32,000 nucleotides of DNA from Gemmata obscuriglobus (GCF_008065095.1 NZ_CP042911.1:4830001-4862000), one strand, 5' to 3'; counted from the first letter of the stretch, positions 1,554 through 19,505 are shown. Notes: a model not told the origin generated them from the letters alone. Numbers and translations are program-made.

Positions 1554-1589
1554 CTACCTTTCTCCCAACCCCTACTTGCATCTCGATCC
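1554..1589 (+). repeat. Island-specific ~36-nt repeat, copy B
   Basis: CTACCTTTCTCCCAACCCCTACTTGCATCTCGATCC, identical over 36 nt to 16143-16178. Intergenic. Confidence 0.9.
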
Positions 1590-3394: not shown

Positions 3395-3510
3395 GTCAAG
3401 CTCCAGAAAGGTCACTCCAGTCTACCGCGGTGCCGTGCAGTACCAAAAGCGAAAAGACCGCCACCAAGGGGGTTAGCCCTCAGCAGCGGTCAGTGTCGAG
3501 TAACTCCGTC

Positions 3511-3540
3511 TAGATGCAAGTAGGAGTTGGGAGAAAGGTA
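3511..3540 (-). repeat. Island-specific ~36-nt repeat, copy C
   Basis: TAGATGCAAGTAGGAGTTGGGAGAAAGGTA is the reverse complement of the consensus core. Intergenic, 117 nt upstream of the 3394 start. Confidence 0.85.
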
Positions 3541-3610: not shown

Positions 3611-3910
3611 CTACTTCAGGAAGTACAGCGGACCTTCTTTAAGCATTGTCATCCCGAGCAGTACGTAGACAAATAAAATACAGCCGACAAGCACGAGGGC
3701 CAGCATTCTGTTTTCCCAAAGTACAGACTCTCGCGACCATACCAACTTGAACGGCATTGGAGGGTCTTGATGATATTGAGCGGGCTGAACCGTCGGAACC
3801 GGCTTCTCAACGAACATCCCCCCTCCGCACCGACCGCATTTGACTGTAACGGGGGGCTCCAGGTCACAATCGAGCGAAATGTGGCAGTGCGGGCATTCAA
3901 CTACGATCAT
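3611..3910 (-). CDS. Zinc-ribbon plus single-TM protein (99 aa)
   Basis: ATG at 3910 preceded by AGGTGA. N-terminal CPHC...CGRC zinc ribbon and a C-terminal hydrophobic helix (MLALVLVGCILFVYVLLGMTM). Last gene of the tightly packed operon. Confidence 0.6.
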   Translation of the reverse strand: MIVVECPHCHISLDCDLEPPVTVKCGRCGGGMFVEKPVPTVQPAQYHQDPPMPFKLVWSRESVLWENRMLALVLVGCILFVYVLLGMTMLKEGPLYFLK

Positions 3911-3920
3911 ACATCACCTG

Positions 3921-4526
3921 TTAGGTTCCATTCAGAAGGTCGTCATTGAGAAACTGGCCCGGGAAGTACGTCGGGGTGTTGTAGGCGTACCGGGGATCAC
4001 TGAAGCTGATGTACTGAGCCTGAGCGTAACCCACCTTCGCGTCCTGACCAGCCTGAACGACCGGACCCGCCGAGGGTGCCGCACCCTGCCCGTACTGAAT
4101 CGCGTTCTGCCGCTGCGTCTCCAGTTCGATCGGGAGACCATTCAACAGGAATCCGTCCTTGGGATCGACCCGAACAGCCTGGATGAAAGTGTACTCGCCC
4201 GCGACGCCCCAGTCAAATTTCGTCCCGTTGGCGTGTGCTTTTGGAGCGTCGAACACCAGCGTGCCGGACAGGATCTGGAACGCACCCGCGTCTTTCGGTG
4301 TCGGGATCTGGGGCGGGGTGCCGGTCTTCTTCTCGTAAAACCGCGAAGTCCTTTTCATCTGCGGGGCGTAAGCCTGCACCATCACCACCGGGCTCCAGTT
4401 AGCCAATTCTTGCGGATCGGTCGGGGGCAGTTCGGCGACGGGCAGGGCGAACCGTCCGGGGTCGAAGGTGTACTCGCTCTCACCGGAGATCTGATCGTAA
4501 CTGATGGCCTTGTTCGTGTCTTTCAC
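3921..4526 (-). CDS. Hypothetical protein (201 aa), distal part of the tail-like operon
   Basis: GTG start at 4526 preceded by GAGGAGAA, 3 nt after the upstream stop. Protein-like composition. No family recognised. Confidence 0.55.
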   Translation of the reverse strand: MKDTNKAISYDQISGESEYTFDPGRFALPVAELPPTDPQELANWSPVVMVQAYAPQMKRTSRFYEKKTGTPPQIPTPKDAGAFQILSGTLVFDAPKAHANGTKFDWGVAGEYTFIQAVRVDPKDGFLLNGLPIELETQRQNAIQYGQGAAPSAGPVVQAGQDAKVGYAQAQYISFSDPRYAYNTPTYFPGQFLNDDLLNGT

Positions 4527-4529
4527 CGG

Positions 4530-5273
4530 TCATTCTCCTCTGTATTTGTCGTTGCTTGCTGGGGGTTTGGGGTAAAGCTGATCGAAGGTGGTTCCGGGCA
4601 GGCTCAGTGCCGAGTAGACCAACTGACACCAAGTGCCCCGGCTGCGACTATCGGCTGCGGGTCGGGGGTTTAGGGTCGGGCCTTCTTCGCCAGAGCCGGC
4701 TGGAGCGTAAGGGTCCGGGACTCGCGACACGTCGTGTTTGGTAATCTGGACCCGGCCGGTGTAGTGGTCTTCCAGGACCGGAACGGGCAAGCCCGGAAGG
4801 AGCGAAAAGCCGTACCCCACACCCGTACCTGTGAAGTCCCACTTTCCTCCAACCACCTCTTCCCTAGGACCGCTCAGCACCGGCAGGAGGTCGTACAGTT
4901 GGTCGGCATCCGGTCGGCCCGCAGCTTGGGTCGAGGCCAGAGCCCACGCCAAACTCGTCGAGTACCGCAGCGTGAAGGTGAGCACGTTCGAGGTGGCGTC
5001 GTAGTTGATCGCAATGGCCCCGGGCGGGGGAGCCAAATCACTCAGGTTCGCCGCGAGACGATGCACCATACCGAACGCGATGGACGCCGCGAGGTGGTAG
5101 AGTTGCTGGCGGTTCGCACGCGGTGAGCCGAAGCAGGTTACGGAAACCAGGTCTTGGATTGAACCAAATTGATCAGACAGCTCCTTGACTGCCTTCAGGC
5201 CTGACATCCCCACGTTCGCAGCGGAAACGGCGGCACTAAACGCTCCGATAACTGCGGCTGCTGGACCGGGCAT
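4530..5273 (-). CDS. Hypothetical protein (247 aa), tail-like operon
   Basis: In-frame ATG at 5273 preceded by AGGAG (CGATAGGAGTTTCC-ATG), 8 nt after the upstream stop at 5282. The longer ORF-track N-terminus overlaps the upstream gene. Confidence 0.55.
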   Translation of the reverse strand: MPGPAAAVIGAFSAAVSAANVGMSGLKAVKELSDQFGSIQDLVSVTCFGSPRANRQQLYHLAASIAFGMVHRLAANLSDLAPPPGAIAINYDATSNVLTFTLRYSTSLAWALASTQAAGRPDADQLYDLLPVLSGPREEVVGGKWDFTGTGVGYGFSLLPGLPVPVLEDHYTGRVQITKHDVSRVPDPYAPAGSGEEGPTLNPRPAADSRSRGTWCQLVYSALSLPGTTFDQLYPKPPASNDKYRGE

Positions 5274-5281
5274 GGAAACTC

Positions 5282-6550
5282 CTATCGAAGTCGAGGTGAG
5301 CGGGGAACGATGACCCGAGACGGCTTGATGGTTGGCGTGCTGGCTGTTGGCTTCGTCGGGATCGGCTTCACGGGAGCGGTCTTTGGGGGAGGAAGTGCGA
5401 CGGGGTGTGAAGCTTCCGGTGGAGTAGGCTTGGGCGGCTCTTTCTGCGAATCGTTGGCCTGCTGTAACCACCGCGAATTGAGTAACTGACTGTTTAAGTC
5501 ACTGAAGACTCCCGCAGTGCCCTTGAGCAAGTCCGCATCCGACACGATGGCCTGCGAATGAGTTGCCTCGATTCTCACCGCTCCCCACACCGCCGCACCC
5601 GGAAGGTGAACAGGCAGTTGGCGGTCCTCGAACCTGTACCTCACGCCCGTACCGTCCCTGAACCCCTCGACCACGATCCCGTCCCGCACGAACCCAAACG
5701 GGCACGGCAGCAAAAGCCGCTGTCGCAAGTCGTCGGGTGAAGTGGCCGTGCTGTAGAGCAGGTCGGATCGGAAAACGGCCTCCCCCTCGACGATGATTTT
5801 GGTCAAGTGCTGGTCGTCGATGGAGTGGATCATCGAGAACCGGTTGCTGAGCAGGGGCGACGCCACCGATCCCGCATTGGGGTCCGTGGACACGAGGTTC
5901 TCTTCCGACTCCCGAACGCAAGTCTCAATGTCAAACTGGATGATAAACGTGTCCGCATCGCCCTGGGAACTGAGGATCTCGCAGGAGATCGGCTGGGGTC
6001 CGTTGCGGGCGTCCGTGTGGTAGGAGAACCGCGTCGGTGACATCAGCAACAGTTCCGAATCCGCAGCCGAGCCGGCGAACACGAAGAGGGGCTTGCGTGG
6101 CGTGAGGAGCCGCTCTCGAATGGCCCGGACGGTCAAGGGAACGGGGTTGGCCACGGGCTCCAACTTGAACTGGCGGACCGCATTCGGAGACCGAGCACCG
6201 AGCCCCGAGGGGGGAGCGTCACCGAACACCTCGTCACCGCTCGGGGAGTGAAAGACTTTGGTGATGGGCACGTTCACGTTGGGCGGGACTGCGGCTGCGG
6301 CTCGGCTGACTCCACTGGGGGCCGTCCTGATCGCGTCATCGCCGGAATACACCAACTCGTCCGTCTTCCGATACGACACCGGCGGACCGGCCACGTCTCT
6401 CACCTCGGACTGCCCGTTCACGGTGCAGACGCCCGAAACTCGGTGCCGGGTGTACAGGTAGTCCGTCTTCGTGTCATCGTAGACCGCCTCCATCCGGTAC
6501 TCATTGATCGTCCCCATCGAGAGGTGTATGCCGTTGTACACAATATCCAT
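5282..6550 (-). CDS. Hypothetical protein (422 aa) with proline-rich C-terminal tail, tail-like operon
   Basis: ATG at 6550 preceded by TAGGAGG. The globular-looking body ends in PKPTPPEASHPVALPPPKTAPVKPIPTKP. No family recognised. Its position would fit a distal-tail or hub protein. Confidence 0.55.
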   Translation of the reverse strand: MDIVYNGIHLSMGTINEYRMEAVYDDTKTDYLYTRHRVSGVCTVNGQSEVRDVAGPPVSYRKTDELVYSGDDAIRTAPSGVSRAAAAVPPNVNVPITKVFHSPSGDEVFGDAPPSGLGARSPNAVRQFKLEPVANPVPLTVRAIRERLLTPRKPLFVFAGSAADSELLLMSPTRFSYHTDARNGPQPISCEILSSQGDADTFIIQFDIETCVRESEENLVSTDPNAGSVASPLLSNRFSMIHSIDDQHLTKIIVEGEAVFRSDLLYSTATSPDDLRQRLLLPCPFGFVRDGIVVEGFRDGTGVRYRFEDRQLPVHLPGAAVWGAVRIEATHSQAIVSDADLLKGTAGVFSDLNSQLLNSRWLQQANDSQKEPPKPTPPEASHPVALPPPKTAPVKPIPTKPTASTPTIKPSRVIVPRSPRLR

Positions 6551-6560
6551 CTAGAGCCTC

Positions 6561-7343
6561 CTAGAGTTGGCTGCGGGTGAGGATGCTGCCCATCGGCCTG
6601 CCCTGAAACCGCAGTGGTTCGGTAGCTTCGGGGTGTGGCTGGCTGGTGACGGTCACGGTGAAGGGTGCGGAGTGAAGTGGTGACGCCAGAGAAGCCGAGC
6701 CGAGATGGGGGAGAGCAACTGCCGGCCTCGGAAGTCGGGCGGGGTGCGTGTCCGGTACGGCTACCCGGTGTCGCTCGCCCCAGCCTTCAAACCTTGACAC
6801 TCGGGATTCAGACTGCCCCCTCTGGTCGAGAGCCAGTTTAGCCGTCGAAGTGTGAGGAGCGGGCGGTGTAGTGGGGCGTGAAAAAGCGGGCTGAACCACC
6901 GAGGCTCTCTCTCGCAACACCAGGGGAGCAGCCGGGGGTGCAGAAGGGGCAAGATTCGCAGGAGGTTGAAGAACGCGAGGTGAAGGTGGAGGGGTGGAAG
7001 GGCTGAGAGGGCTCGGAAGGGTCAACGGCTTTATTGGGAGCGTACTGGGTGCTCTCTCTGGACGTTTCAGGCTCGGAACTGGAATCAAGGGCGTTCGGGC
7101 AGGAAGGTCCAGTTTCTTCGGCGGGGTGACTCGGGGAAACTGCCGCTCGGGAGGGCTGAGAGGGCGGATCGAAGGGGAAGAAGCTCGGCTCGAACTGTCA
7201 CCCAACCGAATACCACGAAACGGAACTACCGGCGGAAGTTGCGTACTGCGGGACGGGGAAGGCGGTGCCAGGACACGGGATCGCAACTCTGCTCGGACTC
7301 TCGACTGCTGCTCGTAATCCCCGTCTCTTTTCGCTGTCGCCAT
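6561..7343 (-). CDS. Proline/serine/arginine-rich low-complexity protein (260 aa) in the slot normally held by a tape-measure gene
   Basis: ATG at 7343, stop 10 nt before the next start. About 50 prolines in 260 residues by my count. In the pre-IS sequence the ATG lay 3 nt after the stop of the upstream ORF (TAGCAAATG). Confidence 0.5.
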   Translation of the reverse strand: MATAKRDGDYEQQSRVRAELRSRVLAPPSPSRSTQLPPVVPFRGIRLGDSSSRASSPSIRPLSPPERQFPRVTPPKKLDLPARTPLIPVPSLKRPERAPSTLPIKPLTLPSPLSPSTPPPSPRVLQPPANLAPSAPPAAPLVLRERASVVQPAFSRPTTPPAPHTSTAKLALDQRGQSESRVSRFEGWGERHRVAVPDTHPARLPRPAVALPHLGSASLASPLHSAPFTVTVTSQPHPEATEPLRFQGRPMGSILTRSQL

Positions 7344-7348
7344 TTGCT

Positions 7349-7358
7349 ACCCCTGTTC
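7349..7358. repeat. Target-site duplication, left copy (ACCCCTGTTC)
   Basis: Identical 10-mer directly abuts both IS termini (7349-7358 and 8609-8618). Confidence 0.9.
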
Positions 7359-8608
7359 CAGGGCCTTTCCTTGATTCACTCTACGTAACTCCGATAAGTC
7401 CCTTGGCCATTGCCGGGTCCATCTGGAGCCGCTCGATCGCCTCCGGGCAACTCACCGCCTTGACCTCACGCCACAGGTGCACCACGGCGTTCCGCAACGC
7501 CGCCAGCACCTGTGGTGCGTGCCCCATGCGCACACGACACGCGTCCTCGCCCAGTGTCACGTCACGCACGTAATGCAGTTCGTTCTCGATGCGCCAGTGC
7601 GTCCGCACATGGTTCAGGAGTGTGGCCGCATCCGCCTTCTCGGCCGACAGGCTCGTGATGCCGAAATGCACTTCGACCGTCGTTTGGCCTCGGACCGTCC
7701 GCTCACGCGTCAACTGGAAGCCCTGCTTCACCCCCGCCCACGTCGGCGAGCACGTCAGAATCGAGGTCGTTTGCAGCGTCCGCTTCTCGATGCGGCCGTG
7801 ACCCTTATCGACGGTCGTGGCGATGCGGCTCGGGGCGGGCGGAGGCCGATCCCCAGGGGGAAGTGGCCGCCGCGATCGATCGGGCGGCGGTCTCGAAGGC
7901 GAACCCGGCTCGGATGTCGATCCCCAATCCGGGTTGGTTGTCCTTCACCGTGAGCACGTAGTCGCCGCCGGCCCCGACCACCTCCTCGGCCAGGTCTCGC
8001 TGGCAGAACATGGCGTCGCCGACCACGACCTTCCCTCGCAGCGGCAGAATGCCGAGGAGCGTCAAGGCGGCCTTGTGCTCGTTGGTGCTCGCATCGACCT
8101 TGACCTGGGCGAGTACGGCACCGACGGTGGGGGCGTATGCGGCCAGCAGGTGCTGACCGGGGATCGCGCCGTTGCGAGAGCCTCGAAGGGTCTTGCCGTC
8201 GATGGAGATGTGTGTGAAGGCGGCCGGGTCGACGCGGCTGGCGATCCAGTACGAGAGGACGTGCTCCAGTTGGTCGGCGTCGAAGCGTCGCAGGGTGCGG
8301 GAGAGCGTGGAAACGGCCGGGGTCTTGCCGCGTCGGAAGCCGAGGGCATGGGCGAGGGCGGGTCCGTGCTGTCGCCCGAAGCGAGCGATGCCATTGAGGC
8401 TGGTGCGCCCCATGAGCATGGCGAGGGCGACGAGTCCGAGGAAGGGGGCGAGTGGGTGGATAAGGCCGTGCTTGCTGCGGGGATCGGGAACCGCCGCCAG
8501 GGCATCGACCAGGGTGCAAGGAGACATGGGTACCTTCCTGGCTGCGAGAAGGCGCCCCACATAGCCACGTTCCCTCGTGTAAGCAAGGTGAAATAAGGAA
8601 AGGCCCTG
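7359..8608 (-). mobile_element. ISAs1-family insertion sequence, 1250 bp
   Basis: Terminal inverted repeats CAGGGCCTTTCCTTGATTCAC (7359-7379) and GTGAAATAAGGAAAGGCCCTG (8588-8608), 19/21 matching, with the CAGGG ends typical of ISAs1. Flanked by a 10-bp direct repeat. Encodes a DDE (ISAs1/H-repeat type) transposase. Confidence 0.9.
7381..8560 (-). pseudogene. ISAs1-family DDE transposase, split by one frameshift
   Basis: The N-terminal ORF (8560-7805; ...SIDGKTLRGS...NEHKAALTLL...VVGDAMFCQRDLA...VKDNQPGL) and the C-terminal ORF (to 7381; TVDKGHGRIEKRTLQ...HWRIENELHYVRDVTLGEDACRV) are in different frames. The frames cross near the G5 run at 7866-7870. Confidence 0.85.
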
Positions 8609-8618
8609 ACCCCTGTTC
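8609..8618. repeat. Target-site duplication, right copy (ACCCCTGTTC)
   Basis: See 7349-7358. Confidence 0.9.
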
Positions 8619-8876
8619 GTGTGCGTGCCTGAGTTTCATTGACCAACTCTTCCATTTCGAGTAGTCCCCGTCACCGTTCCGAAACGCCGACTGCAACCAG
8701 TGATCCGGCACGTCCCGCTCTGCTGCAACGATCTGGCTCAGGGTCGAGTAAAAGCACGAAACGTCGTAGAGCCGGGGCAAATTCAACCACAACGCCACCC
8801 AGTCCCCGTACCCCAACTCGACACTACCGAGCCCGAACGTGTGAAACAGATCCGCCCAGAACGCACCCTCTAGGCT
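8609..8876 (-). CDS. -1 frame extension ORF (T-like part of a G/GT tail-chaperone pair); native stop displaced by the IS
   Basis: The frame is open across the slippery site. There is no ATG/GTG and no SD; the only candidate start is TTG at 8816. Before IS insertion it ended ...HAHEQG-TAG, with the TAG now at 7347-7349. It now reads through into the IS. Confidence 0.55.
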
Positions 8877-9169
8877 TTTTTTGAGAGATACTCCTCGAAG
8901 TGATGGACCGCCTCCAAGACTTCCGCGTCAAGCCGGCCGCCCTCCTCGTCGAACCTCCGGAACCCGAACACCCGCCGAGCCACTCCCGCGATCTGAAGGG
9001 CCACAGTCGCTCGGTCTTGAGGAGGAGTGTCGGCACCACACCAGAGGTCCAACCACTCGTCCCACATCCCGCCGCTCTGAGCAACAAGGCTGTAGGAGAG
9101 GGCAATCGGATCGTACTTATCCCCGGTGGGGGCGGTGTAAATCTGCTTTTCGTGCTCGGTAAACAGCAT
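8870..9169 (-). CDS. Tail assembly chaperone-like protein (G-like, 99 aa)
   Basis: ATG at 9169 preceded by GGAG, 2 nt after the upstream stop. Small acidic protein located directly after the two tube-like paralogs. Ends ...TCA AAA AAA GCC TAG. Confidence 0.55.
   Translation of the reverse strand: MLFTEHEKQIYTAPTGDKYDPIALSYSLVAQSGGMWDEWLDLWCGADTPPQDRATVALQIAGVARRVFGFRRFDEEGGRLDAEVLEAVHHFEEYLSKKA
8876..8882 (-). promoter_or_regulatory. Candidate programmed -1 ribosomal frameshift site A_AAA_AAA
   Basis: Seven A residues on the coding strand are phased X_XXY_YYZ in the zero frame (TC[A AAA AAA] GCC TAG). The -1 frame continues AGC CTA GAG... and stays open for 89 codons in the pre-IS sequence. 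Confidence 0.6.
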
Positions 9170-9171
9170 GG

Positions 9172-9720
9172 CTACTCCGGGGTGACGGAAGGGAAATCGG
9201 ACGGGACTTCGGTATACAGGACGAACTCTTTCACCTGCTTGTAGTAGAGAGGATTGCACTCCACCATGAGGGTGATTGACTTAAGACGGTCTTCAGAATA
9301 TTCGGACCAATCCAACAGAGTGCCCGATCTGTAGAGGCGACCGGTCCACATCCCGGGAGGCAGAGGAACCACAGGAAAGGTGTAGATCGTGTGCCGAAAA
9401 AACAACTCGAAGTCTGACACGTTGAGCACCAACCGACCGACTTTTGGTGTGTGAACGGTTGGGGAACTGGAGTTGCTGCGGATGGAGTTCCACGTCTCAA
9501 CATTCAGTCGGTTGATCGTGGCCGTTACAACGTGCTGCTCCCCCTGCCCCGTTTTCTGCCACGGGACTTCACCGCCCTTATCACAGTGAAGATCGCTGTA
9601 GAATCGGCGGACGTGAATTTCTGGGGCGGTGGTGCAAGTGCCGAGGAAGTCGAACGAGTTGCGTGAGCGTAGCCTGACGTACAGTTCGATCGCACCGACC
9701 GGGAGGAATTGGGCTGACAT
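9172..9720 (-). CDS. Structural protein paralog B (182 aa), possible tail-tube-like protein
   Basis: ATG at 9720 preceded by GAGG. Paralogous to 9730-10302 through shared blocks LGTC, INRLNxxTWN, GRLY, ECN and the C-terminus F-P-S-V-T-P-E. The tube assignment rests on size and position upstream of the G/GT-like pair only. Confidence 0.45.
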   Translation of the reverse strand: MSAQFLPVGAIELYVRLRSRNSFDFLGTCTTAPEIHVRRFYSDLHCDKGGEVPWQKTGQGEQHVVTATINRLNVETWNSIRSNSSSPTVHTPKVGRLVLNVSDFELFFRHTIYTFPVVPLPPGMWTGRLYRSGTLLDWSEYSEDRLKSITLMVECNPLYYKQVKEFVLYTEVPSDFPSVTPE

Positions 9721-9729
9721 GGGGCAACC

Positions 9730-10302
9730 TCACTCTGGCGTGAAGCTGCCGAACTTGCCACCATCCTCAGTGAAGAGGGGAAAAGCCCGAGTCGCCGGAT
9801 CAAACACCCCGTTGCACTCGAAGAGGATGGAGACCGAGTGGGTGCGGGTGCCAGCAGAGCTTTCCGAGGAGCGGCGTGGAATGGCTGAGTAGTAGAGTCT
9901 GCCACGCGGGATCGCAGGGTCACCCGAGAACGCAGTCCCACCGAAGGCAAACGTCATCAGTAGCTGGAAGTCCGTTTTGCCAATGGTGAGCGTGCCGTGA
10001 TCGGTCTGGAAATCGGTGTAGTCAATCGGCGAATTGGTGACCTGCGGAGAGCCTCGACGGAGGACGTTGTAGGTGTTCCAGTTGAAGCGGTTGAGGGTGA
10101 GGGTGACGATCTCCTGTCTGCGGTCACGCACGTAATCTGTTGCCAGCGAACGGCCGCCCAAATCATTATACACTGGTAAGAATGAATCCGTAGCCTCCCA
10201 CTCCGGGCTACGCTCGCAAGTACCCAGATAACGCCAAGCAGAATCGGCGGGCTTCTTAATGTAGGTGTCAACTGGTCCCAGACAGGGAAAAACGGCAGGC
10301 AT
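9730..10302 (-). CDS. Structural protein paralog A (190 aa), possible tail-tube-like protein
   Basis: In-frame ATG at 10302 preceded by GGAG (GTGGAGTTCTCC-ATG). Ends F-G-S-F-T-P-E. First gene after repeat copy D. Confidence 0.45.
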   Translation of the reverse strand: MPAVFPCLGPVDTYIKKPADSAWRYLGTCERSPEWEATDSFLPVYNDLGGRSLATDYVRDRRQEIVTLTLNRFNWNTYNVLRRGSPQVTNSPIDYTDFQTDHGTLTIGKTDFQLLMTFAFGGTAFSGDPAIPRGRLYYSAIPRRSSESSAGTRTHSVSILFECNGVFDPATRAFPLFTEDGGKFGSFTPE

Positions 10303-10460
10303 GGAGAACTCCACGGACAGAAGTGCGGAAGGGAAGTGAACGAGCACAGAGCCAGAGCCGAGAGGAAGACACTACGGCCGACCTCAGCACTAGCTCTGTG
10401 GATGGAGGAGAATGAGTTAACAGGATAGGTGATGGAGCAGAGGTGACGCGGAACGGGATC

Positions 10461-10497
10461 GAGGATAGAGATGCAAGTAGGTCTTGGGAGAAAGGTA
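10461..10497 (-). repeat. Island-specific ~36-nt repeat, copy D
   Basis: GAGGATAGAGATGCAAGTAGGTCTTGGGAGAAAGGTA. Its left 21 nt are identical to copy H and its core is identical to copy F. Confidence 0.9.
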
Positions 10498-10525
10498 AAG
10501 AATAGAGTCCACCCCGAAGCACACC

Positions 10526-11146
10526 CTACATCCACTCATCCATGCCGGTCGCGGGTGGGCTAGTCCGTCGGTGGGTAGCGATTTTGTGTGCCATGCCGAG
10601 ACTGGAGATCATGCCTTGAGCAGAGGGCCAGTGCAAAGCGTCACCGGCGAAACGCGGAATGAAGTGGTGCTGGGCCGGGGTCTCGTGCTCCCAACTCGCC
10701 AAGTAGCCCGGCAGGTCGGTCACGTCCACACCCCACGGCAGCACCGGAGGCTCCTGCTCACCAGTGTACTCGGCCATAGGGTCGTGTTTGATAGACCAAG
10801 GGCGGTTGGGGTCGTCGGATCGCTGCGAGGGGTACTCGTGCTGGAGCCAGTGGGCGAGCGACTGGTGAAAGTCGGCCATGTCGTGGTGATCCTGCTCTCG
10901 CAGGTAGTCGGCGTAGGCGTTCCTGGTGATGTGGTCGAAAGGTGACTTGTCCAGGGCTTTCAGAAAAGCTTTGTTCTCCGGTCCCAGCTTACGCGGCTGT
11001 TGCTCGGGAGGCGTTTTGGTTCGCTTTGGTTTGGTGTACTTGCCGGTAGTGGGGTCTACCATCGGCCCGATCCCAGTGAACGGCTTTTTGGCAAAATGGA
11101 GTGCCTTGTTGTACGATTTGGCGTAATTGCGATTTGAACGATCCAT
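10526..11146 (-). CDS. TIGR02996-like (Gemmata repeat-companion type) domain protein (206 aa)
   Basis: ATG at 11146 preceded by AGAGG. The motif FLKALDKSPFDHITRNAYADYLREQD resembles the LVYADWLxExGD signature seen in 18624-19277. The ORF also stays open upstream through the pentanucleotide repeat to ATG 11344. Confidence 0.55.
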   Translation of the reverse strand: MDRSNRNYAKSYNKALHFAKKPFTGIGPMVDPTTGKYTKPKRTKTPPEQQPRKLGPENKAFLKALDKSPFDHITRNAYADYLREQDHHDMADFHQSLAHWLQHEYPSQRSDDPNRPWSIKHDPMAEYTGEQEPPVLPWGVDVTDLPGYLASWEHETPAQHHFIPRFAGDALHWPSAQGMISSLGMAHKIATHRRTSPPATGMDEWM

Positions 11147-11155
11147 AAAAACCTC

Positions 11156-11225
11156 TGAAGTGAAGTGAAGTGAAGTGAAGTGAAGTGACGTGAAGTGACG
11201 TGAAGTGAAGTGAAGTGAAGTGACG
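11156..11225. repeat. Pentanucleotide tandem repeat (TGAAG/TGACG) x14
   Basis: Eleven TGAAG and three TGACG units are read directly. The repeat starts 9 nt upstream of ATG 11146 and reads as (CTTCA)n on the coding strand. Confidence 0.95.
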
Positions 11226-11301
11226 GAAGAAGTGTGGAAGCGTAGCCGACTCAGATCGATAGCCGAAGCTGCTGAAGAGGCGGGGCGGCTTCGGGGGAGC
11301 G

Positions 11302-11613
11302 TCACCGGGTCCGGCCCGCTGTCGTGGAAGGGCGAAACGCCCACTCTTCGGCCACTGACACGACCTTGGCCCGAACCATTCGGTACCGCTCGAAGTCGCC
11401 GTGCTGCTCAACGTCCCAAGTCTCTTCCAGAGACTGTAGACCCAACCGTGCAACTTCGGCCCTCTCAACCGCAGGGCCACGAACTTGGACCGGGACGACA
11501 TCGACCACGTGAGCGTTCACTAACTCACCGTCCTGGCCAACAAGCTGCATGTCGAACAGTACCGCATAGGCCCGCAGCATCTGAGCCGGGTTCGAAGGAG
11601 TGACGTTACACAT
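11302..11613 (-). CDS. Hypothetical protein (103 aa)
   Basis: ATG at 11613 with GGAG upstream. Protein-like composition. Second gene of the minus-strand operon. Confidence 0.5.
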   Translation of the reverse strand: MCNVTPSNPAQMLRAYAVLFDMQLVGQDGELVNAHVVDVVPVQVRGPAVERAEVARLGLQSLEETWDVEQHGDFERYRMVRAKVVSVAEEWAFRPSTTAGRTR

Positions 11614-11633
11614 TCAGGTTCTCCAGGAAGGCT

Positions 11634-12011
11634 TTAATTCTCAGACGGGGTGTACTTGCGGCGTGAAGTGTCGGGCACGTAGGAAGTGCGGCTAACCTTC
11701 GCAGGATCGGAGGCGACCACCCACTCTTTCGCAGATTCCACCAGCACCCAATCCACAGTTTGCCACTGCCGGAGAGGCCCCATAGATTCCGCACGCCAGC
11801 CAGAACGTAAAGACTCCATTGCCAACTCCACCACCTCTTCTTCGCCGATCTCTCTAGCGTCTGGCTCCAAAAATGACACGGGAACAGGCTGGACGACAGG
11901 AGCTTTGAGGCCCGCACGCCGCAGAGTAAGCAGGACAACGAAGGACTGGAGATACTCCACCGGATTCGGGGCCGAGAATCGGGATTGACGAACCAGAACA
12001 GCGGCACACAT
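11634..12011 (-). CDS. Hypothetical protein (125 aa; 152 aa if the GTG at 12092 is used)
   Basis: ATG at 12011 preceded by AAGGTG. The alternative GTG at 12092 has a weak SD. First gene leftward of the divergent control region. Confidence 0.5.
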   Translation of the reverse strand: MCAAVLVRQSRFSAPNPVEYLQSFVVLLTLRRAGLKAPVVQPVPVSFLEPDAREIGEEEVVELAMESLRSGWRAESMGPLRQWQTVDWVLVESAKEWVVASDPAKVSRTSYVPDTSRRKYTPSEN

Positions 12012-12103
12012 ACGAGACACCTTGACGAGTGCAGAGGAGGGAACCTTAACCTGCCATACATATAGAGGCAGAAGCAGACCGAATTGTTGCACTAAACCAC
12101 ACC

Positions 12104-12123: not shown

Positions 12124-12153
12124 CCTACCTTTCTCCCAAGACCTACTTGCATC
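12124..12153 (+). repeat. Island-specific ~36-nt repeat, copy E
   Basis: CCTACCTTTCTCCCAAGACCTACTTGCATC. 12129-12153 is a perfect 25-bp inverted repeat of 12211-12235. Confidence 0.9.
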
Positions 12154-12201
12154 AATACGAACACACTCGACCCCAGAATGACGATTCAGAGAGGCAACTT
12201 C

Positions 12202-12235
12202 GAGGATCGAGATGCAAGTAGGTCTTGGGAGAAAG
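12202..12235 (-). repeat. Island-specific ~36-nt repeat, copy F
   Basis: GAGGATCGAGATGCAAGTAGGTCTTGGGAGAAAG. Faces copy E across a 57-bp spacer. Confidence 0.9.
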
Positions 12236-12245
12236 CTGGCGTTTT

Positions 12246-12369
12246 GAGACGGCAGAGACGGCAGAGACGGTGATTTTTGGGGAACAGTTCCTCTTTTCTC
12301 TTCTTTCTTCAAAACATGGTCAAGGAAAGAGTTTTGGGAAAACGCCGTCTCTGCCGTCTCTGCCGTCTC
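12246..12369. repeat. Iteron-like inverted arms (GAGACGGCA x2.8) flanking a 74-bp AT/pyrimidine-rich spacer; possible origin or operator
   Basis: GAGACGGCAGAGACGGCAGAGACGG (12246-12270) and its exact reverse complement CCGTCTCTGCCGTCTCTGCCGTCTC (12345-12369). The spacer contains TTCCTCTTTTCTCTTCTTTCTTC. Confidence 0.7.
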
Positions 12370-13411: not shown

Positions 13412-15160
13412 ATGGCAAAGAAAAAGGTCACGAAAGCAGACATTCAGGGCCAGTACGAGGTCTTCCGGTCGCTAGGCATCCGGCTGGTCAGGTCGAAGTC
13501 CGGGGAGCTGTTCCTGGCCACCAGCCCGACCGGCAAGCCCGGGGGGAGTGTGGAACTACACCCCTACGATCTGGCTGAGTCGTGTGAGGAGATCAAATGG
13601 GTACTGAGAGACGCGGGCAAAGCCATTGACATGCGACTGGTGGCCGAAGCGGTCAAGGGACTCGTCCGCAGTACCAAGAAAAGTCCACCTGAAATGGTGT
13701 CGCGTCGTGTCGCCGAGCGGGACGGGAAAATCTTCGTGGACCTGTGCAACTCCGAGCGACAGGTAGTGGAAATTGCGGCTGACGGGTGGCGAGTCACCAC
13801 CGACTGTCCGGTTCTCTTTCACAGGCCGCTCCAAGCTCTACCCCTGCCGGTCCCGGTACAGGACGGCTCCATTCAGCGATTGCGGGAGCTGTTCAGCATT
13901 CTCGACGAACCGAGCTGGATTTTGGTGCTGGGCTGGCTGAGCACCACCCTGAAGGAGCACTGCGACCACCCGTTCTTGTCGATCCTGGGTCCGCCGGGCT
14001 CGGGAAAAAGTGCCCTTACTAAGTTTGCGTACTGCACGATCGATCCTCGCGAGGCGAAGGGGCTGCAGATGCAGCAGAACGCAGAGGATTTGCAACTCAG
14101 TGCTTTCAACCGCTGGGTACTCCCGCTCGATGAGGTCGATAGCCTCCCGCCGGAAAAATCCCGGATCGTGGCGACCATCTGCACGGGCGGGGCTCTTGAA
14201 AAGCGAAAGAAGTACGAGAATACCGAAGTCGTATGTGCTGTAATCAATCGCCCGGCAATCATCAACGGGCTAGAGGCAGGGGAGTGGCTACACGAGGAGC
14301 GAATCCGGGACCGTGCGATTCCCGTGGCTCTCGGTCGGGTGCGGCCCGAAGCCAGTGTTGAGGACGGAGATCTTATCAGGGCGTTCGAGCGACATCACCC
14401 GGAGATACTCGGCGGCCTTTTCACCATCGTTTCACAGGCACTCAGAGGCATTCGGGATGGAGAGGTGACAGCTCGTCACTCCCTGCGAATCAAAGAGGCC
14501 ATGACGTGGGCGGATCGCTGCGTGCACGCTGCGGGGTACTCGAACGGGGAGTTCACCCGACTGGTGACGGAAGCACACGCCAGGATCGTTGAGAGGGTGG
14601 CCGAAGAGTGGTCCCTACTCGACCCACTACTGAAAGTGGCTGGATCGGGGTTCCAGGGCAGTCCGACGGAGCTTCTGGACAAGCTCAACAGCATGGTCGA
14701 GCGGAAGGGGCGGGATTGGCCGAAGAGTTCAAGCCAACTGACCCGAACGATCAACCAGCACGTTGAGTACTTAGAAAAGCGGGGCGTCCGGGCTGAGCAC
14801 ACCAAGGGCCAGCAACGATTCTGGGTCATTCGGTCGGTCCCGAGTTTCGCTCAACAGAGTGCCAACTCAGTGAATGCTGCCAAACCGCTGGCACCACTAT
14901 CCGAAGGCGAGCAGTCAGACCTAAAGTCGAAGCTCCTTCGGTGGGCCGATTTTGCAGACAAAATCGATATCTGCTTCACTCACCGGGACTCCAGCAACAC
15001 GCTATATGGTCGATTTGCAGAGGCGGCATCGATAGCCCTGAAGAGGTCTTTAGAGCCAGACCGCACGCTGCGAATACCTGATGACGAGTTTCTATCGCTC
15101 GATACAGCAAGCGAGTTACTACTTGTCGAAGTTAATCCAAAAGCTGAGGGCAAAAATTGA
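13412..15160 (+). CDS. P-loop NTPase, SF3-helicase-like replication protein (582 aa)
   Basis: Walker A ILGPPGSGKS, Walker B VLPLDEVD, then a beta-strand ending in N (VINRPAIIN, motif C-like). The large N-terminal domain and this position are typical of phage/plasmid primase-helicase or initiator genes. Confidence 0.55.
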   Translation: MAKKKVTKADIQGQYEVFRSLGIRLVRSKSGELFLATSPTGKPGGSVELHPYDLAESCEEIKWVLRDAGKAIDMRLVAEAVKGLVRSTKKSPPEMVSRRVAERDGKIFVDLCNSERQVVEIAADGWRVTTDCPVLFHRPLQALPLPVPVQDGSIQRLRELFSILDEPSWILVLGWLSTTLKEHCDHPFLSILGPPGSGKSALTKFAYCTIDPREAKGLQMQQNAEDLQLSAFNRWVLPLDEVDSLPPEKSRIVATICTGGALEKRKKYENTEVVCAVINRPAIINGLEAGEWLHEERIRDRAIPVALGRVRPEASVEDGDLIRAFERHHPEILGGLFTIVSQALRGIRDGEVTARHSLRIKEAMTWADRCVHAAGYSNGEFTRLVTEAHARIVERVAEEWSLLDPLLKVAGSGFQGSPTELLDKLNSMVERKGRDWPKSSSQLTRTINQHVEYLEKRGVRAEHTKGQQRFWVIRSVPSFAQQSANSVNAAKPLAPLSEGEQSDLKSKLLRWADFADKIDICFTHRDSSNTLYGRFAEAASIALKRSLEPDRTLRIPDDEFLSLDTASELLLVEVNPKAEGKN

Positions 15161-15255
15161 AGTGCGGGAACAAAGAAACCACGTGCGGCTGGTGCGAGAA
15201 GCTGGAGCAGCTCGATCTCATTTCGGGCTCAAACCTACAACTGCCTACCGTGTGA
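15157..15255 (+). CDS. Short Cys-rich ORF (32 aa, TTG start overlapping the upstream TGA); possibly the true N-terminus of the next gene via a frame change
   Basis: TTG AAG TGC GGG AAC ... encodes KCGNKETTCGWCEKLEQLDLISGSNLQLPTV-stop. The TTGA overlap with the helicase stop suggests translational coupling. Below the ORF-track size cut-off. Confidence 0.3.
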   Translation: MKCGNKETTCGWCEKLEQLDLISGSNLQLPTV

Positions 15256-15316
15256 CCGAACCTCTGATGTAATAGAGTGCGAATGCAACAAGTGCAAAAA
15301 AACCTATCACGAGAAT

Positions 15317-16099
15317 GTGATCAGAACCAAGAAGTGTGGCTTTAAGGTGGTGGAAGGACGATCTTGCTGCCCACACTGCTTCTACAAAGCCAACGACGGC
15401 TTCAAGAGTCGTGACCCAAATGGCATCCAAGAGGGTCAACGTAAACTCCGCGACACCCAAGGAAAACCCGCAATTGGCACTCCACCGACTCCGCGAGAAG
15501 CGAGGGCAATTTGTGCTTATGCTCTGGCCGAAACTTTTATGAAAGCAAACAAAGCGGACCCTCTAAGTCAGGATGACCTTCTGAACCGCCTGACGGCCAA
15601 GGGTACCGAATGCGTTTTTCGTTTTGTCCCTTCGACACAAGACATGGTAATTCCCAACTTTCGCACAAGTTACAATTGCTGCTTTGAGGTGCCAAGGGGG
15701 TTCGTAGGATACTGTTGGAAATGTTACAAGCAGATTCTAACAGATATCTATACAGAGCGTGAACAATCACCTGAGTTCCTTGAGTACAGTGAAGGACCAA
15801 TCGAAGCTGCAGCTAAGCCCGGTCTTAACCCAAGCCAGATCCTCCTAGACCCTCTCCCTTTACTGCTGCCGCCGCTCAACAACCTGACACAGCAGCAACA
15901 GGACGTTCTTTTGATGAGTCTAGGACTGCACCAGGAGTATGGCGGGGAGCTGTCCGATAACGAGATCGCCAGCCTCCTCAATATCTCTCCCGGGAACGTC
16001 CGCTCTACCAAGAGCAGGGCAAAGACACAATTGAGTGCCGATCCGGAGCTAGCAACCCTTTTTGCCAAGATATCCAGGCGTCAGACCACTGACGGGTGA
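15317..16099 (+). CDS. Cys-rich protein with C-terminal sigma-70 region-4-like HTH (at least 260 aa)
   Basis: The C-terminus LTQQQQDVLLMSLGL...LSDNEIASLLNISPGNVRSTKSRAKTQL matches the sigma70_r4_2 pattern. The first canonical start is GTG 15317, but the frame is open and Cys-rich from about 15239 (NCLPCDRTSDVIECECNKCKKTYH). Confidence 0.6.
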   Translation: MIRTKKCGFKVVEGRSCCPHCFYKANDGFKSRDPNGIQEGQRKLRDTQGKPAIGTPPTPREARAICAYALAETFMKANKADPLSQDDLLNRLTAKGTECVFRFVPSTQDMVIPNFRTSYNCCFEVPRGFVGYCWKCYKQILTDIYTEREQSPEFLEYSEGPIEAAAKPGLNPSQILLDPLPLLLPPLNNLTQQQQDVLLMSLGLHQEYGGELSDNEIASLLNISPGNVRSTKSRAKTQLSADPELATLFAKISRRQTTDG

Positions 16100-16142: not shown

Positions 16143-16180
16143 CTACCTTTCTCCCAACCCCTACTTGCATCTCGATCCTC
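16143..16180 (+). repeat. Island-specific ~36-nt repeat, copy G
   Basis: CTACCTTTCTCCCAACCCCTACTTGCATCTCGATCCTC. Ends 17 nt before the TTG 16197 start. Confidence 0.9.
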
Positions 16181-16568: not shown

Positions 16569-17477
16569 TTAACAACCCGCCAAACTGATTAACAGGTTAA
16601 TGTGGGCACACGTAGCCCCGATCATATGCTCAGCGTACTCTCGGCCAGCTATGTAAGAAGGCTTTGGCCCCTTGCCGTGTGCGTCCCCCATCTTGTTGCG
16701 AATCATACCAACTGCCTTGAATATCTCCGTGTAATGAGGCGGAAACAAGTCGTGTTTTCGGCAAATTTCAACGTAAGTGGAGCAACTACCGGCGTTAGGG
16801 TCGAAGGTCCATCCCTTGAAATCACAGATCGTCCGGAGAACGCTTTCGAATGCTGATCCACAGGATGTGATAGCCCCAGCGTAGTCACCGTTTTTGACTT
16901 CCTCGAATGCGTTAAGCAATTCCCCGTTGGCGACAGAGAATCGCTCCCCGGCTAACACTTCAAGTGCGGGCTTAACGACAATTTCGTGAGTTGTCCTCTC
17001 GCCTTTCTTGATAAGACGTGGGTACTCCACTCGCTGAACGTTTGTATCAAGTTGCCGACCGTACAGAGTAGCTCGCTCGCCAGTATCACGCCATACTGGT
17101 GCAGTCAGTTCGTATCCAACCCCTTCCTCTTCAAACATCTGGTTAATCCAGGCTACGGCACCACAGGCAGCGTCTCCAGTACCAACCGCGTTTGTGCGAA
17201 AACACATCTCGATAAACTCAATTGCCTCATCATCTACACACGCAAGAAAGTGCTGAGCAGCAGGGTAGGCCTGATTAAAGTTTGCTTTTAACGAACCATA
17301 CTTTTGCAACGCCAAGTCCGCAACTTCCCCCAGGAGACGCTCGAAGCTGTAACTTATCTCGCCCCAGCCATTCCTATGATTTTTAAAGAACTGGAGCACC
17401 CGCATCCGGACTCTCTCGGAGAGCGAATACGTGTAACGTGCAATGGGAACTTCCTGCTTCTGTGCAGACCACCCCAT
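16569..17477 (-). CDS. HEPN-domain protein, AbiJ-like abortive-infection candidate (302 aa)
   Basis: ATG at 17477 preceded by AGGAGG. C-terminal Rx6H motif IRNKMGDAHG (16677-16700). N-terminal YSLSERVRMRVLQFFKN resembles AbiJ N-terminal domains. Stands alone, convergent with its neighbour. Confidence 0.6.
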   Translation of the reverse strand: MGWSAQKQEVPIARYTYSLSERVRMRVLQFFKNHRNGWGEISYSFERLLGEVADLALQKYGSLKANFNQAYPAAQHFLACVDDEAIEFIEMCFRTNAVGTGDAACGAVAWINQMFEEEGVGYELTAPVWRDTGERATLYGRQLDTNVQRVEYPRLIKKGERTTHEIVVKPALEVLAGERFSVANGELLNAFEEVKNGDYAGAITSCGSAFESVLRTICDFKGWTFDPNAGSCSTYVEICRKHDLFPPHYTEIFKAVGMIRNKMGDAHGKGPKPSYIAGREYAEHMIGATCAHINLLISLAGC

Positions 17478-18077: not shown

Positions 18078-18569
18078 ATGGAAGAGATTTGGAAGCCGAT
18101 TCCGAATGCAGATGGATACGAAGTAAGTGACCAAGGCCGAGTGAGAACTTACTACTGGCGAAAGAAGTGGTGGCCCGAGCCCCGAATCCTCTCCCTGACT
18201 CCCCACTCTGACGGGTATCTCAAGACCACCATCTACGGCCAAACCCGCTACGTCCACCAACTCGTTCTATCAGTTTTTGGTCCAGATCCCCGACCAGGGC
18301 AGGTGGTGCGTCACAGAGGGGGAGATCCCCACGACAACCGAGCCTGCAACCTGGAGTGGGGGAGTCGAACGGAGAACAATCAGGACACGGCTCGGCACGG
18401 AAAAGTAGCGGGGCAGAAGCTGAGCGAGGACGAGGCTTGGGGAATCAAACTGCTCCTGCACCACCAAGTTCCTGGACCCGACGTGAAACGGATCTACCCC
18501 CACGCCAGCACCGGAATGATCTCCTGCATCAGACTCGAAAAGACTTGGCCCCACTTGACGATCAACTAA
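18078..18569 (+). CDS. HNH homing endonuclease (NUMOD4 + HNH_3 type, 163 aa)
   Basis: WKPIPNADGYEVSDQGRVRT (NUMOD4 pattern). YVHQLVLSVFGP...VRHRGGDPHDNRACNLEWGSRTENNQD (HNH). ATG preceded by GGAG. Confidence 0.8.
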   Translation: MEEIWKPIPNADGYEVSDQGRVRTYYWRKKWWPEPRILSLTPHSDGYLKTTIYGQTRYVHQLVLSVFGPDPRPGQVVRHRGGDPHDNRACNLEWGSRTENNQDTARHGKVAGQKLSEDEAWGIKLLLHHQVPGPDVKRIYPHASTGMISCIRLEKTWPHLTIN

Positions 18570-18623: not shown

Positions 18624-19277
18624 ATGACGGATGGCGACCTTCTACTCCGAGCCGTGCTGAACGACCCCGAAGACGACACCGCACGGCTGGTTTACGCGGA
18701 CTGGCTGATCGAACATGGGGACCGTAAACGGGGTGAGTTCATTCGGGGACAAGTGGAGGCTGCGAGTGCCGGGATAGAGTGCCCACGGGAAATTTGGGAT
18801 TTGCTACCGGCCGGGTTCGAGTGGCTGGGACTGCAACCGCCGGAAGAGTTCGAGATCGGTTGGGACCGTGGGTTCGTGGACTGGATCGTTTCACCGCGGC
18901 GATACATCTGGAACCGGAAGCGGCTTCAGAAACTCTTTAGTCAGCACCCGATTAACAGTGTCGAGTTGTGCGACGTGTCCCCTGCTTTCCTGGACCCCGC
19001 TGACCCCGAACAGTGCGGTTGGTGGCCGGGCGGGTGGACCGTAGATGGGAAAGTGTCCGATCTCCTGTTCGCTCGACTCCCGGACGGGGAGATGTTCTTC
19101 TGCTGTGATGCCGGCGAGTGGACGGGTTGGTTCTTGCAGTACCCGACATGGGACTCGGCCCGAGAGGCACTCCGAGCAGCGGTGACTTCCTACGGGCGAA
19201 GTCTGGTGCGGTTGCCGTCGAGTGCGTTCCGGCAGAAAGAAGGCGGGCGAATCCGAAAGCGGAAGTTCGTGACCTGA
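18624..19277 (+). CDS. TIGR02996 domain-containing protein (217 aa)
   Basis: The N-terminus LLRAVLNDPEDDTARLVYADWLIEHGDRKRGEFIRGQ is the canonical Gemmata repeat-companion signature. Confidence 0.75.
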   Translation: MTDGDLLLRAVLNDPEDDTARLVYADWLIEHGDRKRGEFIRGQVEAASAGIECPREIWDLLPAGFEWLGLQPPEEFEIGWDRGFVDWIVSPRRYIWNRKRLQKLFSQHPINSVELCDVSPAFLDPADPEQCGWWPGGWTVDGKVSDLLFARLPDGEMFFCCDAGEWTGWFLQYPTWDSAREALRAAVTSYGRSLVRLPSSAFRQKEGGRIRKRKFVT

Positions 19278-19424: not shown

Positions 19425-19505
19425 TGGCCAAGGTGGGACTCGAACCCACACAGGTTGCCCCGCTCGATTTTGAGTCGAGTGCGTCTGCCATTCCGCCACT
19501 TGGCC
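19425..19505 (-). tRNA. tRNA-Leu (anticodon CAA), class II
   Basis: Folded by hand as GGCCAAG/CTTGGCC acceptor, GCG/CGC D-stem, CTCGA-CTCAAAA-TCGAG anticodon arm (CAA), 13-nt variable arm, GTGGG-TTCGAGT-CCCAC T-arm, discriminator A. No CCA is encoded. Confidence 0.9.

Follow-up and report, generated by a model that had tools for sequence, protein, structure and literature searches.

Does a chromosomal cluster of phage-tail-like genes without any head genes encode something that its host has kept, or is it what is left of a prophage? We addressed this question for an operon in a 32,000-nt stretch of the Gemmata obscuriglobus genome, hereafter the window, in which all positions are counted from the first letter. 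The minus strand of the window carries a tight operon comprising a conserved module (3611-10302), to which a TIGR02996-like gene (10526-11146) is added. By its gene content, this is a phage-derived, sheath-less tail module that is detached from head genes in the loci searched and is common to two Gemmata species. On balance, we consider it somewhat probable that it is a selected, domesticated module for the production of tails. To our knowledge no phage has been isolated for Gemmata, and a literature search returned no report of a tailocin in Planctomycetota and nothing relevant on Gemmata prophages.

Organization of the tail operon

Gene order, strand and coordinates are as described in an initial annotation of this DNA, and the genes of the module are listed here from 5' to 3'.

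9730-10302, minus strand: tube-fold paralog A, 190 aa, candidate tail tube or tail terminator
9172-9720, minus strand: tube-fold paralog B, 182 aa
8870-9169, minus strand: G-like putative tail assembly chaperone, 99 aa
8876-8882, minus strand: slippery heptamer A_AAA_AAA
8619-8882, minus strand: T extension in the -1 frame, ~88 codons
7360-8608, minus strand: insertion sequence (IS) element, 1,249 bp
6561-7343, minus strand: Pro-rich low-complexity protein, 260 aa, in the tape-measure slot
5282-6550, minus strand: 422-aa tail protein (family f422), which may be a Dit-like distal-tail or a hub component
4530-5273, minus strand: 247-aa protein (family f247)
3921-4526, minus strand: 201-aa conserved tail-module protein (family f201)
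3611-3910, minus strand: zinc-ribbon protein of 99 aa whose C-terminus carries a hydrophobic (transmembrane-like) segment, the final gene of the operon
3456-3491, minus strand: strong terminator-like hairpin (15-bp stem, then a T run) that closes the operon

Paralog A is identical (100% identity) to GobsT_40980. The genes are separated by 2-10 nt within A/B/G and within the block from the Pro-rich protein to the 99-aa protein, with the IS interrupting between the two blocks, and most starts are preceded by GGAG-like motifs. The tight spacing and Shine-Dalgarno motifs that had been taken as signs of one co-translated operon are real for these blocks. Spacing is wider 5' of A, where gaps of 20, 155 and 223 nt separate the 152-aa, 103-aa, TIGR02996-like and A genes. 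Scanning all module proteins against Pfam, PHROG and NCBIfam returned only the TIGR02996 domain and one weak PHROG of uncharacterised function.

Tube-fold paralogs and a predicted frameshift

A and B are true paralogs (29% identity, E 8e-21), and orthologous A/B pairs are kept in all of the phage relatives described below. A sequence profile of the A/B family found nothing among PDB sequences, placing the similarity to known proteins at the level of the fold only. The AlphaFold2 (AF2) model of A, built from an alignment of 25 family members, reached a predicted local distance difference test (pLDDT) score of 83.9 and a predicted template-modelling (pTM) score of 0.79. When this model was compared with the PDB using Foldseek, 38 matches were obtained at E<=1e-3 (probability 1.0, TM 0.35-0.56), all of which are tail tube, tail terminator, Hcp or contractile-injection-system (CIS) tube proteins. 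They include lambda gpV (7t2e, 8k36), SPP1 gp17.1, the monocin tube (8qhs, 9j1j) and HFTV1, along with neck proteins of phages 812 and Douge. By fold, A and B belong to the phage tail tube/Hcp superfamily, and we infer that they serve as tube and/or terminator, with the roles split between them.

The initial annotation had recognized two tube-like paralogs, in agreement with these results, and had also suggested that they might be jelly-roll capsid proteins of a virus with a membrane, an idea in keeping with the several small zinc-ribbon membrane proteins nearby. We regard this second proposal, taken to mean single jelly-roll capsids of a virus without a tail, as refuted. No jelly-roll capsid was found among the 50 Foldseek matches listed, which contrasts with the 38 tube, terminator and Hcp matches; relatives of A/B are located between a Mu gp36-type adaptor and G/GT in the virion modules of tailed phages; and neither a packaging ATPase nor any other supporting gene is present.

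The gene following B encodes the 99-aa G-like protein, which shares 38-52% identity with 98-99-aa proteins at the same position in the related phage contigs L001, L004 and L006. It ends with ...TC A AAA AAA GCC TAG, such that the heptamer, followed by G, lies one codon (GCC) before the stop codon at 8872-8870. From the heptamer on, the -1 frame is open and encodes a domain homologous to the small open reading frame (ORF) that follows G in the relatives; according to tblastn and hidden Markov model (HMM) searches, homology to these T ORFs begins at the slippery site. The string A7G + TAGAGGG is identical in five loci, namely the window, the corresponding locus of Gemmata algarum (L003), L001, L004 and L006, despite the low identity of the G proteins. 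Moreover, comparison of the two Gemmata species shows constraint on T in the -1 frame (dN/dS 0.12), and stops interrupt both remaining frames. Overlapping ORFs with a slippery heptamer between the tube and the tape-measure slot are the signature of G/GT, as the initial annotation had proposed for this pair, and a -1 frameshift is predicted. G itself had no match in Pfam, PHROG or NCBIfam, i.e. no similarity to known chaperone families was detected there.

Related phages and the missing head genes

Relatives were retrieved by word-indexed homology searches of a collection of 5.8 billion proteins, which yielded 26 members of the A/B family and 15 members of the 422-aa family. The relative contigs are L001 (17 kb, from farmland soil), L004 (96 kb), L006 (78.6 kb), L008 (45 kb), and L013 and L014 (both from IMG/VR). 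In these phages, genes for a protease/scaffold (~470 aa), a ~135-aa protein, a ~350-aa putative major capsid protein and an adaptor precede A, which is followed by B, G/T, the Pro-rich protein, f422, f247, f201, f429 and a fibre. The module directly follows the head/adaptor genes in L001, L004, L006, L008, L013 and L014, with A located after the adaptor gene itself in L001, L004, L006 and L013. The ~135-aa decoration protein matches phrog_673 (E 2e-13), and the Mu gp36-type head-tail adaptor is recognized by Pfam (25.2 bits) and phrog_195 (E 3e-7). With this conserved order of head and tail genes, the relatives are tailed phages, and the Gemmata genes correspond to their tail half.

Using HMMs of the relatives' protease/scaffold, decoration, capsid and adaptor proteins, we found none of these in the 32-kb window, in the 7.7 kb to its left (L009), or in the orthologous 21-kb locus of G. 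algarum JC673 (L003). The DNA left of the window, where the initial annotation had suggested looking for a head module, contains no such module; its genes are those of a large serine integrase and a tyrosine integrase, together with small genes. Its claim that head genes are missing is thereby upheld, and the tail module is orphaned from head genes across at least -7.7 kb to +32 kb. A tail cluster without head or packaging genes, as is typical of tailocins, is what the window, L009 and L003 contain. The module also lacks a sheath-sized protein, and no sheath-sized gene of a recognizable sheath family occurs in the relatives; by gene content the tail would be non-contractile, as first proposed.

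Heads could nevertheless be encoded elsewhere in the chromosome, either by a split, domesticated virion system of the gene transfer agent (GTA) type or by a scattered prophage, and complete particles would then be made. In GTA systems such as RcGTA the virion genes are spread over several loci, and purifying selection on tail genes to which no head genes are linked, as well as the island's own sigma-like regulator and a repeat motif at several promoter-like positions (both described below), would suit such an arrangement. Yet head and tail genes are contiguous in every related phage, no head gene is found in ~40 kb (G. obscuriglobus) or 21 kb (G. algarum) around the module, and even the head-tail adaptor is missing there. 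We therefore consider a split system distinctly improbable.

With respect to distribution, tblastn searches of 50,697 GenBank phages with the 422-aa protein, the L013 capsid and the 540-aa Pro-rich protein of L013 gave no match, an IMG/VR scan with the 422 pair gave nothing, and a profile search of genome contigs identified only G. algarum. The source of the module is an uncultured, siphovirus-like (sheath-less) phage lineage, some members of which infect Gemmata-type planctomycetes. Distant relatives of the whole virion module are present in low-GC uncultured phages (L012, and the IMG/VR uncultivated viral genomes L013 and L014, GC 41-42%), indicating that the lineage reaches well beyond planctomycete hosts. 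In these low-GC relatives the scaffold gene has, on its upstream side, a gene for a protein of 1,357-1,465 aa, and HMMs detected no G/T ORFs.

Other features of the relatives were also noted. Homing-endonuclease-like genes of the HNH/LAGLIDADG type occur between capsid and adaptor, at the same position in several relatives; such genes are found at L001 7903-8643 (minus strand), 3811-4773 and 14791-15939 (minus strand), L004 4609-5568 (minus strand) and L006 7938-8630 (minus strand). In addition, large TIGR02996-repeat proteins (781-1062 aa) are encoded upstream of the head genes in L001, L006 and L008.

A Pro-rich protein in the tape-measure slot

The 260-aa protein that follows T is of low complexity and contains 19% Pro; its C-terminus, ..LTxxxL, is the conserved part. 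Every relative encodes a low-complexity Pro/Ser/Thr-rich protein in the equivalent position, either after T or, in L013/L014, directly after tube B. These slot proteins contain 12-30% Pro and have 181-260 aa (409-540 aa in L013/L014), and a short motif, ..LT(x)xDL, recurs at the C-terminus of those from the Gemmata-type relatives. No long alpha-helical tape measure was found in the window or in any relative. The initial annotation was thus right that the operon lacks one, but the lack is no sign of loss, given that all relatives are alike in this respect; decay as its cause was rejected since it is a trait of the whole lineage. The Pro-rich protein has the position expected of a tape measure, but neither the composition nor the length, and it is aligned without indels to its G. 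algarum counterpart. Our literature search returned nothing relevant on proline-rich tape measures or on frameshifts in F-type tailocins.

Distal tail proteins

The 422-aa protein belongs to a very large family, with 3,034 clusters (50% identity) at E<=1e-3 and 849 at E<=1e-30, for which we found no Pfam model and no sequence relative in the PDB; a PHROG scan of 96 diverse members gave one weak match. Its AF2 model (pLDDT 62) matched two uncharacterised proteins of uncultured Caudovirales in BFVD (E 1.8e-8 and 2.3e-7) and showed weak Dit-like matches of the N-domain in the same database (E 4e-3 to 0.15). The location of the gene after the tape-measure slot fits a putative distal-tail or hub role. 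The 247-aa protein corresponds to the C-terminal half of the f422 protein in other lineages: the f247 domain is fused to the f422 C-terminus in 18/158 family members, e.g. P0008 (E 2.5e-36), and the two Gemmata proteins are therefore halves of one functional unit. The 201-aa protein has orthologs in L001, L004, L005, L006, L008, L013 and L014 and weakly matches phrog_5392, a family of uncharacterised function. Among PDB sequences, profiles built for the A/B, 422, 247, 201, capsid and adaptor families retrieved nothing meaningful.

One further gene, f429 (~430-480 aa, no Pfam or PHROG match), is found in all related phages that cover the region. It encodes 429 aa between the adaptor and A in L004 and adjoins the fibre in other relatives.

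The 99-aa zinc-ribbon/transmembrane protein that ends the operon is a weak holin candidate, and the module of L001 ends with a protein of the same length and architecture. Compared with L003 12638-12937, it has 55.6% identity, versus 93-99.5% for the adjacent tail genes, and directly downstream of it G. algarum carries an additional 266-aa HEAT-like gene. At the 3' end of the operon, replacement or diversification is thus concentrated locally around the 99-aa gene.

Conservation in Gemmata algarum

G. algarum shares an average nucleotide identity (ANI) of 79.4-93.2% with three other Gemmata species and is closest to G. obscuriglobus by 16S rRNA (PMC10817699). Our blastn alignments paired L003 7506-9205 with window 10305-8606 (94%) and L003 9192-12684 with window 7359-3864 (89%), and nucleotide identity across the module ranges from 85 to 97%. 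The left flank is syntenic, with four further genes that are 92-99% identical, and the serine integrase is absent in G. algarum. Since the identity of the module is near the highest reported ANI and the left flank is syntenic, vertical inheritance of an already head-less island fits these data.

Rates of substitution between the window and L003 were calculated by the NG86 method.

A: dN/dS 0.017, dS 0.13
B: dN/dS 0.086, dS 0.38
G: dN/dS 0.031, dS 0.29
T: dN/dS 0.12, dS 0.16
Pro-rich: dN/dS 0.38, dS 0.31
422: dN/dS 0.12, dS 0.31
247: dN/dS 0.07, dS 0.62
201: dN/dS 0.13, dS 0.16
TIGR02996-like: dN/dS 0.08, dS 0.68 (88.8% aa identity to G. algarum)

The low ratios, together with a single indel column in ~1,600 aligned codons, are not those of neutral decay and indicate that the proteins remained necessary during most of the period after the copies separated. 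Neighbouring genes of the island are less conserved, at ~60% identity for an HTH protein and 56% for the 99-aa protein, compared with 93-99.5% for the tail genes. On the strength of these comparisons, the head-less module has been kept under strong purifying selection in both Gemmata species.

An IS element and a missing fibre segment

The presence of an IS within the operon, already recognized in the initial annotation, was confirmed by its 20-bp terminal inverted repeats (CAGGGCCTTTCCTT...) and by a 10-bp target duplication, GAACAGGGGT, at 8609-8618 and 7350-7359. The element is absent from G. algarum, where the blastn alignments bracket it. Its insertion point is the T stop codon, 5 nt ahead of the ATG of the Pro-rich gene, and the last T residues and the stop have been replaced, so that GT now reads into IS sequence. 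Owing to this position, the five distal genes lie 1.25 kb from the upstream genes, and the IS stands between them and the promoter region at the upstream end of the operon. Its transposase (DDE_Tnp_1 with DDE_Tnp_1_assoc), which may be frameshifted or recently inactivated, is broken up into two ORFs, 7381-7731 and 7805-8560 on the minus strand, with repeats and duplication intact.

A second difference is located between the TIGR02996 gene and A, where a 5.1-kb segment found in G. algarum, with copies of a Gemmata repeat at its borders, encodes three proteins. The first is a 1,054-aa collagen-like tail fibre that matches PHROG tail fibre families (to E 2.8e-26) and shares homology over its N-terminal 400 aa with fibre-like proteins from L004, L005 and L013; the others are a 354-aa protein and a glycosyltransferase-like protein. 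In G. obscuriglobus this position is occupied by one copy of the repeat, and there is no fibre gene. Repeat-to-repeat recombination would be one origin of the indel, and the flanks are too diverged to decide. The IS is a recent insertion, and with it in place and the fibre segment missing, the G. obscuriglobus copy is probably not assembly-competent now.

Such damage raises the possibility that the module is an inert prophage remnant, whose intactness would reflect limited time or hitch-hiking. The IS at the T/Pro-rich junction and the loss of the fibre segment in G. obscuriglobus are what a remnant would show, as are the lack of f429 in both species, the lack of a lysis cassette among the ORFs scanned, and the setting in a mosaic island with low GC, integrases and an Abi-like gene. 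Its difficulty is the pattern of substitution, with dN/dS of 0.02-0.13 in seven coding units at dS 0.13-0.62, only one indel column, and tail genes better conserved than neighbouring island genes. An inert remnant is an unlikely explanation.

Island context

Upstream of A and to the right of the operon, we noted the following features.

10468-10490, minus strand: Gemmata repeat copy CTCCCAAGACCTACTTGCATCTC, ~165 nt 5' of paralog A
10526-11146, minus strand: TIGR02996-domain protein, 206 aa, upstream of the tail genes in both Gemmata species
11156-11223, plus strand: (TGAAG)13.6 tract (CTTCA on the gene strand), immediately 5' of the TIGR02996-like start and shorter in G. algarum
11302-11613, minus strand: 103-aa ORF, putative module member
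11634-12092, minus strand: 152-aa ORF, putative module member
12246-12270 and 12344-12369: two inverted arrays of a 9-bp unit, GAGACGGCA x2.8, in the divergent control region
13412-15160, plus strand: 582-aa P-loop protein
15317-16099, plus strand: sigma-70 region-4 protein
16569-17477, minus strand: AbiJ/Abi_C-like protein
18078-18569, plus strand: NUMOD4-HNH endonuclease
18624-19277, plus strand: second TIGR02996-domain protein, strong (76 bits)
19425-19505, minus strand: tRNA-Leu(CAA)

The TIGR02996 domain of the 206-aa protein scores 29.7 bits in NCBIfam against a cut-off of 29.05, in support of its earlier assignment. By contrast, the 103-aa and 152-aa ORFs, which had been counted as part of the operon, have no family match and no homolog in the G. 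algarum locus or the phage relatives; the extent that stands is the conserved module plus the TIGR02996-like gene. The TGAAG tract may be phase-variable or regulatory, and the 9-bp arrays look operator-like.

The Gemmata repeat is a 23-nt sequence, CTCCCAAnnCCTACTTGCATCTC, of which the window holds six copies (none expected by chance), at 1562-1584(+), 3511-3533(-), 10468-10490(-), 12133-12155(+), 12209-12231(-) and 16151-16173(+). Further copies are located in L003 (2336, 7254, 19611, 21082 and 21212) and L009 (2920, 5984 and 6108), and the repeat is absent from all metagenomic phage relatives. The copies face downstream genes and bracket the 5.1-kb fibre indel. They may be promoters for the island's sigma-like protein or a dispersed repeat of Gemmata, and the copy upstream of A may be a promoter or operator.

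The 582-aa P-loop protein was considered as a terminase and rejected because it resembles a phage primase/helicase (Microbacterium phage Zeta1847 gp37; 27.5% identity, E 4e-22); we assign it to replication of the island. The right end of the island is probably at the tRNA-Leu region, and ordinary chromosomal genes of higher GC lie beyond its right side. To the left, the serine recombinase (phrog_95 integrase, E 9e-66; L009 2931-4484) is ~1.3-2.9 kb from the window start, and the tyrosine integrase is another 3.6 kb further left.

These features invite comparison with a satellite that encodes tails and hijacks the heads of a helper phage, the mirror image of the capsid-forming phage-inducible chromosomal islands (PICIs). 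The divergent control region between the tail operon and a rightward operon with primase/helicase and sigma-like protein would suit a satellite, as would the large serine integrase 2 kb left of the window and the tRNA-Leu at 19425-19505. However, the G. algarum locus lacks the serine integrase, its 1.6 kb upstream of the module start shows no adjoining replication operon, the flank synteny favours vertical inheritance over recent mobility, and an adaptor or head-joining gene is lacking. A satellite is accordingly a very unlikely explanation.

A possible route to a head-less tail

Having weighed these alternatives, we return to the selected, domesticated tail module and propose the following model. 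Head and adaptor genes would have been lost before the split of G. obscuriglobus and G. algarum, and selection would then have kept the module. A and B would form the tube and/or a terminator ring; G and a G-T fusion produced by the -1 frameshift would chaperone the Pro-rich protein, by the lambda G/GT paradigm; and the Pro-rich protein would be the equivalent of a tape measure. The 422-aa and 247-aa proteins, with the 201-aa protein, may form the distal tail or tip, consistent with their position and the weak Dit-like fold match, and a collagen-like fibre encoded in the same operon would be added in G. algarum. The product might be a tail-like particle, non-contractile and without a head, comparable to F-type tailocins, or tails for heads encoded elsewhere. 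A tailocin function is plausible for a module that is known here from its genes, and function is favoured by the strong purifying selection across two species.

Several observations weigh against this model. Neither locus has a complete set of tail genes, as that of G. obscuriglobus is without both fibre and f429, and that of G. algarum has the fibre and lacks f429, for which the HMM found no match at either of them. In G. obscuriglobus, moreover, the IS disrupts T and the fibre segment is lacking. No endolysin or holin family match and no lysis cassette were found among the island ORFs scanned, which did not include every small ORF. The 422-aa, 247-aa and 201-aa proteins are without confident structural assignment, and the model of the 422-aa protein gave nothing significant with Foldseek against the PDB, with weak baseplate matches (probability 0.66). 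Finally, the call of a capsid gene in the relatives comes from its position and one weak precomputed Pfam match.

A functional module would extend the range of weapons or delivery devices derived from phage tails to Planctomycetota. A bolder version, which we hold to be doubtful, is that Gemmata species keep a domesticated tail machine, non-contractile and without heads, the first tailocin-like system in the phylum, with twin tubes and a Pro-rich disordered core for length or ejection; if true, this would be a solution to tail assembly that has not yet been described. Functional or not, the module exposes a large lineage of uncultured phages, with a signature protein of >3,000 clusters at 50% identity, and this lineage opens a question about tail length, namely whether a disordered or polyproline protein can replace a helical ruler.

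Comparison with known systems

The kind of locus is known, i.e. a defective-prophage tail cluster or a tailocin. What is new is the host phylum, the duplicated tube genes, the Pro-rich disordered slot protein beside a classical G/GT, and a very large family of distal-tail proteins outside curated libraries.

The module resembles the tails of lambda/HK97-type siphoviruses in its order (tube, G, -1 GT, tape-measure slot, distal proteins), in its tube fold, in the lack of a sheath, and in that the relatives' module directly follows the head-tail adaptor. It differs from them in having two paralogous tube-fold genes, whereas lambda/HK97 have one tube gene and an unrelated terminator, and in that the slot protein is Pro-rich and 181-540 aa rather than long and alpha-helical. 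In addition, f422/f247, f201 and f429 are without a significant sequence match in Pfam, PHROG or the PDB, and the Gemmata loci have no head genes, no adaptor gene and no f429.

Like the capsid-forming PICIs, the island has an integrase, a divergent regulatory region, a primase/helicase and half a virion. Unlike them, the Gemmata half is the tail, no evidence of mobility was found, and the integrase is absent from the second species. With RcGTA-type GTAs the module shares domesticated, vertically inherited phage structural genes under purifying selection. In RcGTA (g10/g10.1/g11), a G/GT-like pair of chaperones likewise goes together with a tape-measure slot that a short protein occupies. The GTA cluster contains terminase, portal, protease and capsid genes, in contrast to this locus, which has none.

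F-type tailocins (pyocin F of Pseudomonas aeruginosa and the monocin of Listeria) differ in that their particles and killing are known, compared with genes for Gemmata, and in that the Gemmata module has no recognized lysis cassette, has an atypical tape-measure equivalent, is IS-interrupted and fibre-less in the window, and is part of a larger mobile-element-like island with integrase and replication genes. They are nevertheless similar to it in being a chromosomal siphovirus-type tail cluster without head genes, in a tube fold that matches the monocin tube, in purifying selection in related species, and in a variable fibre region.

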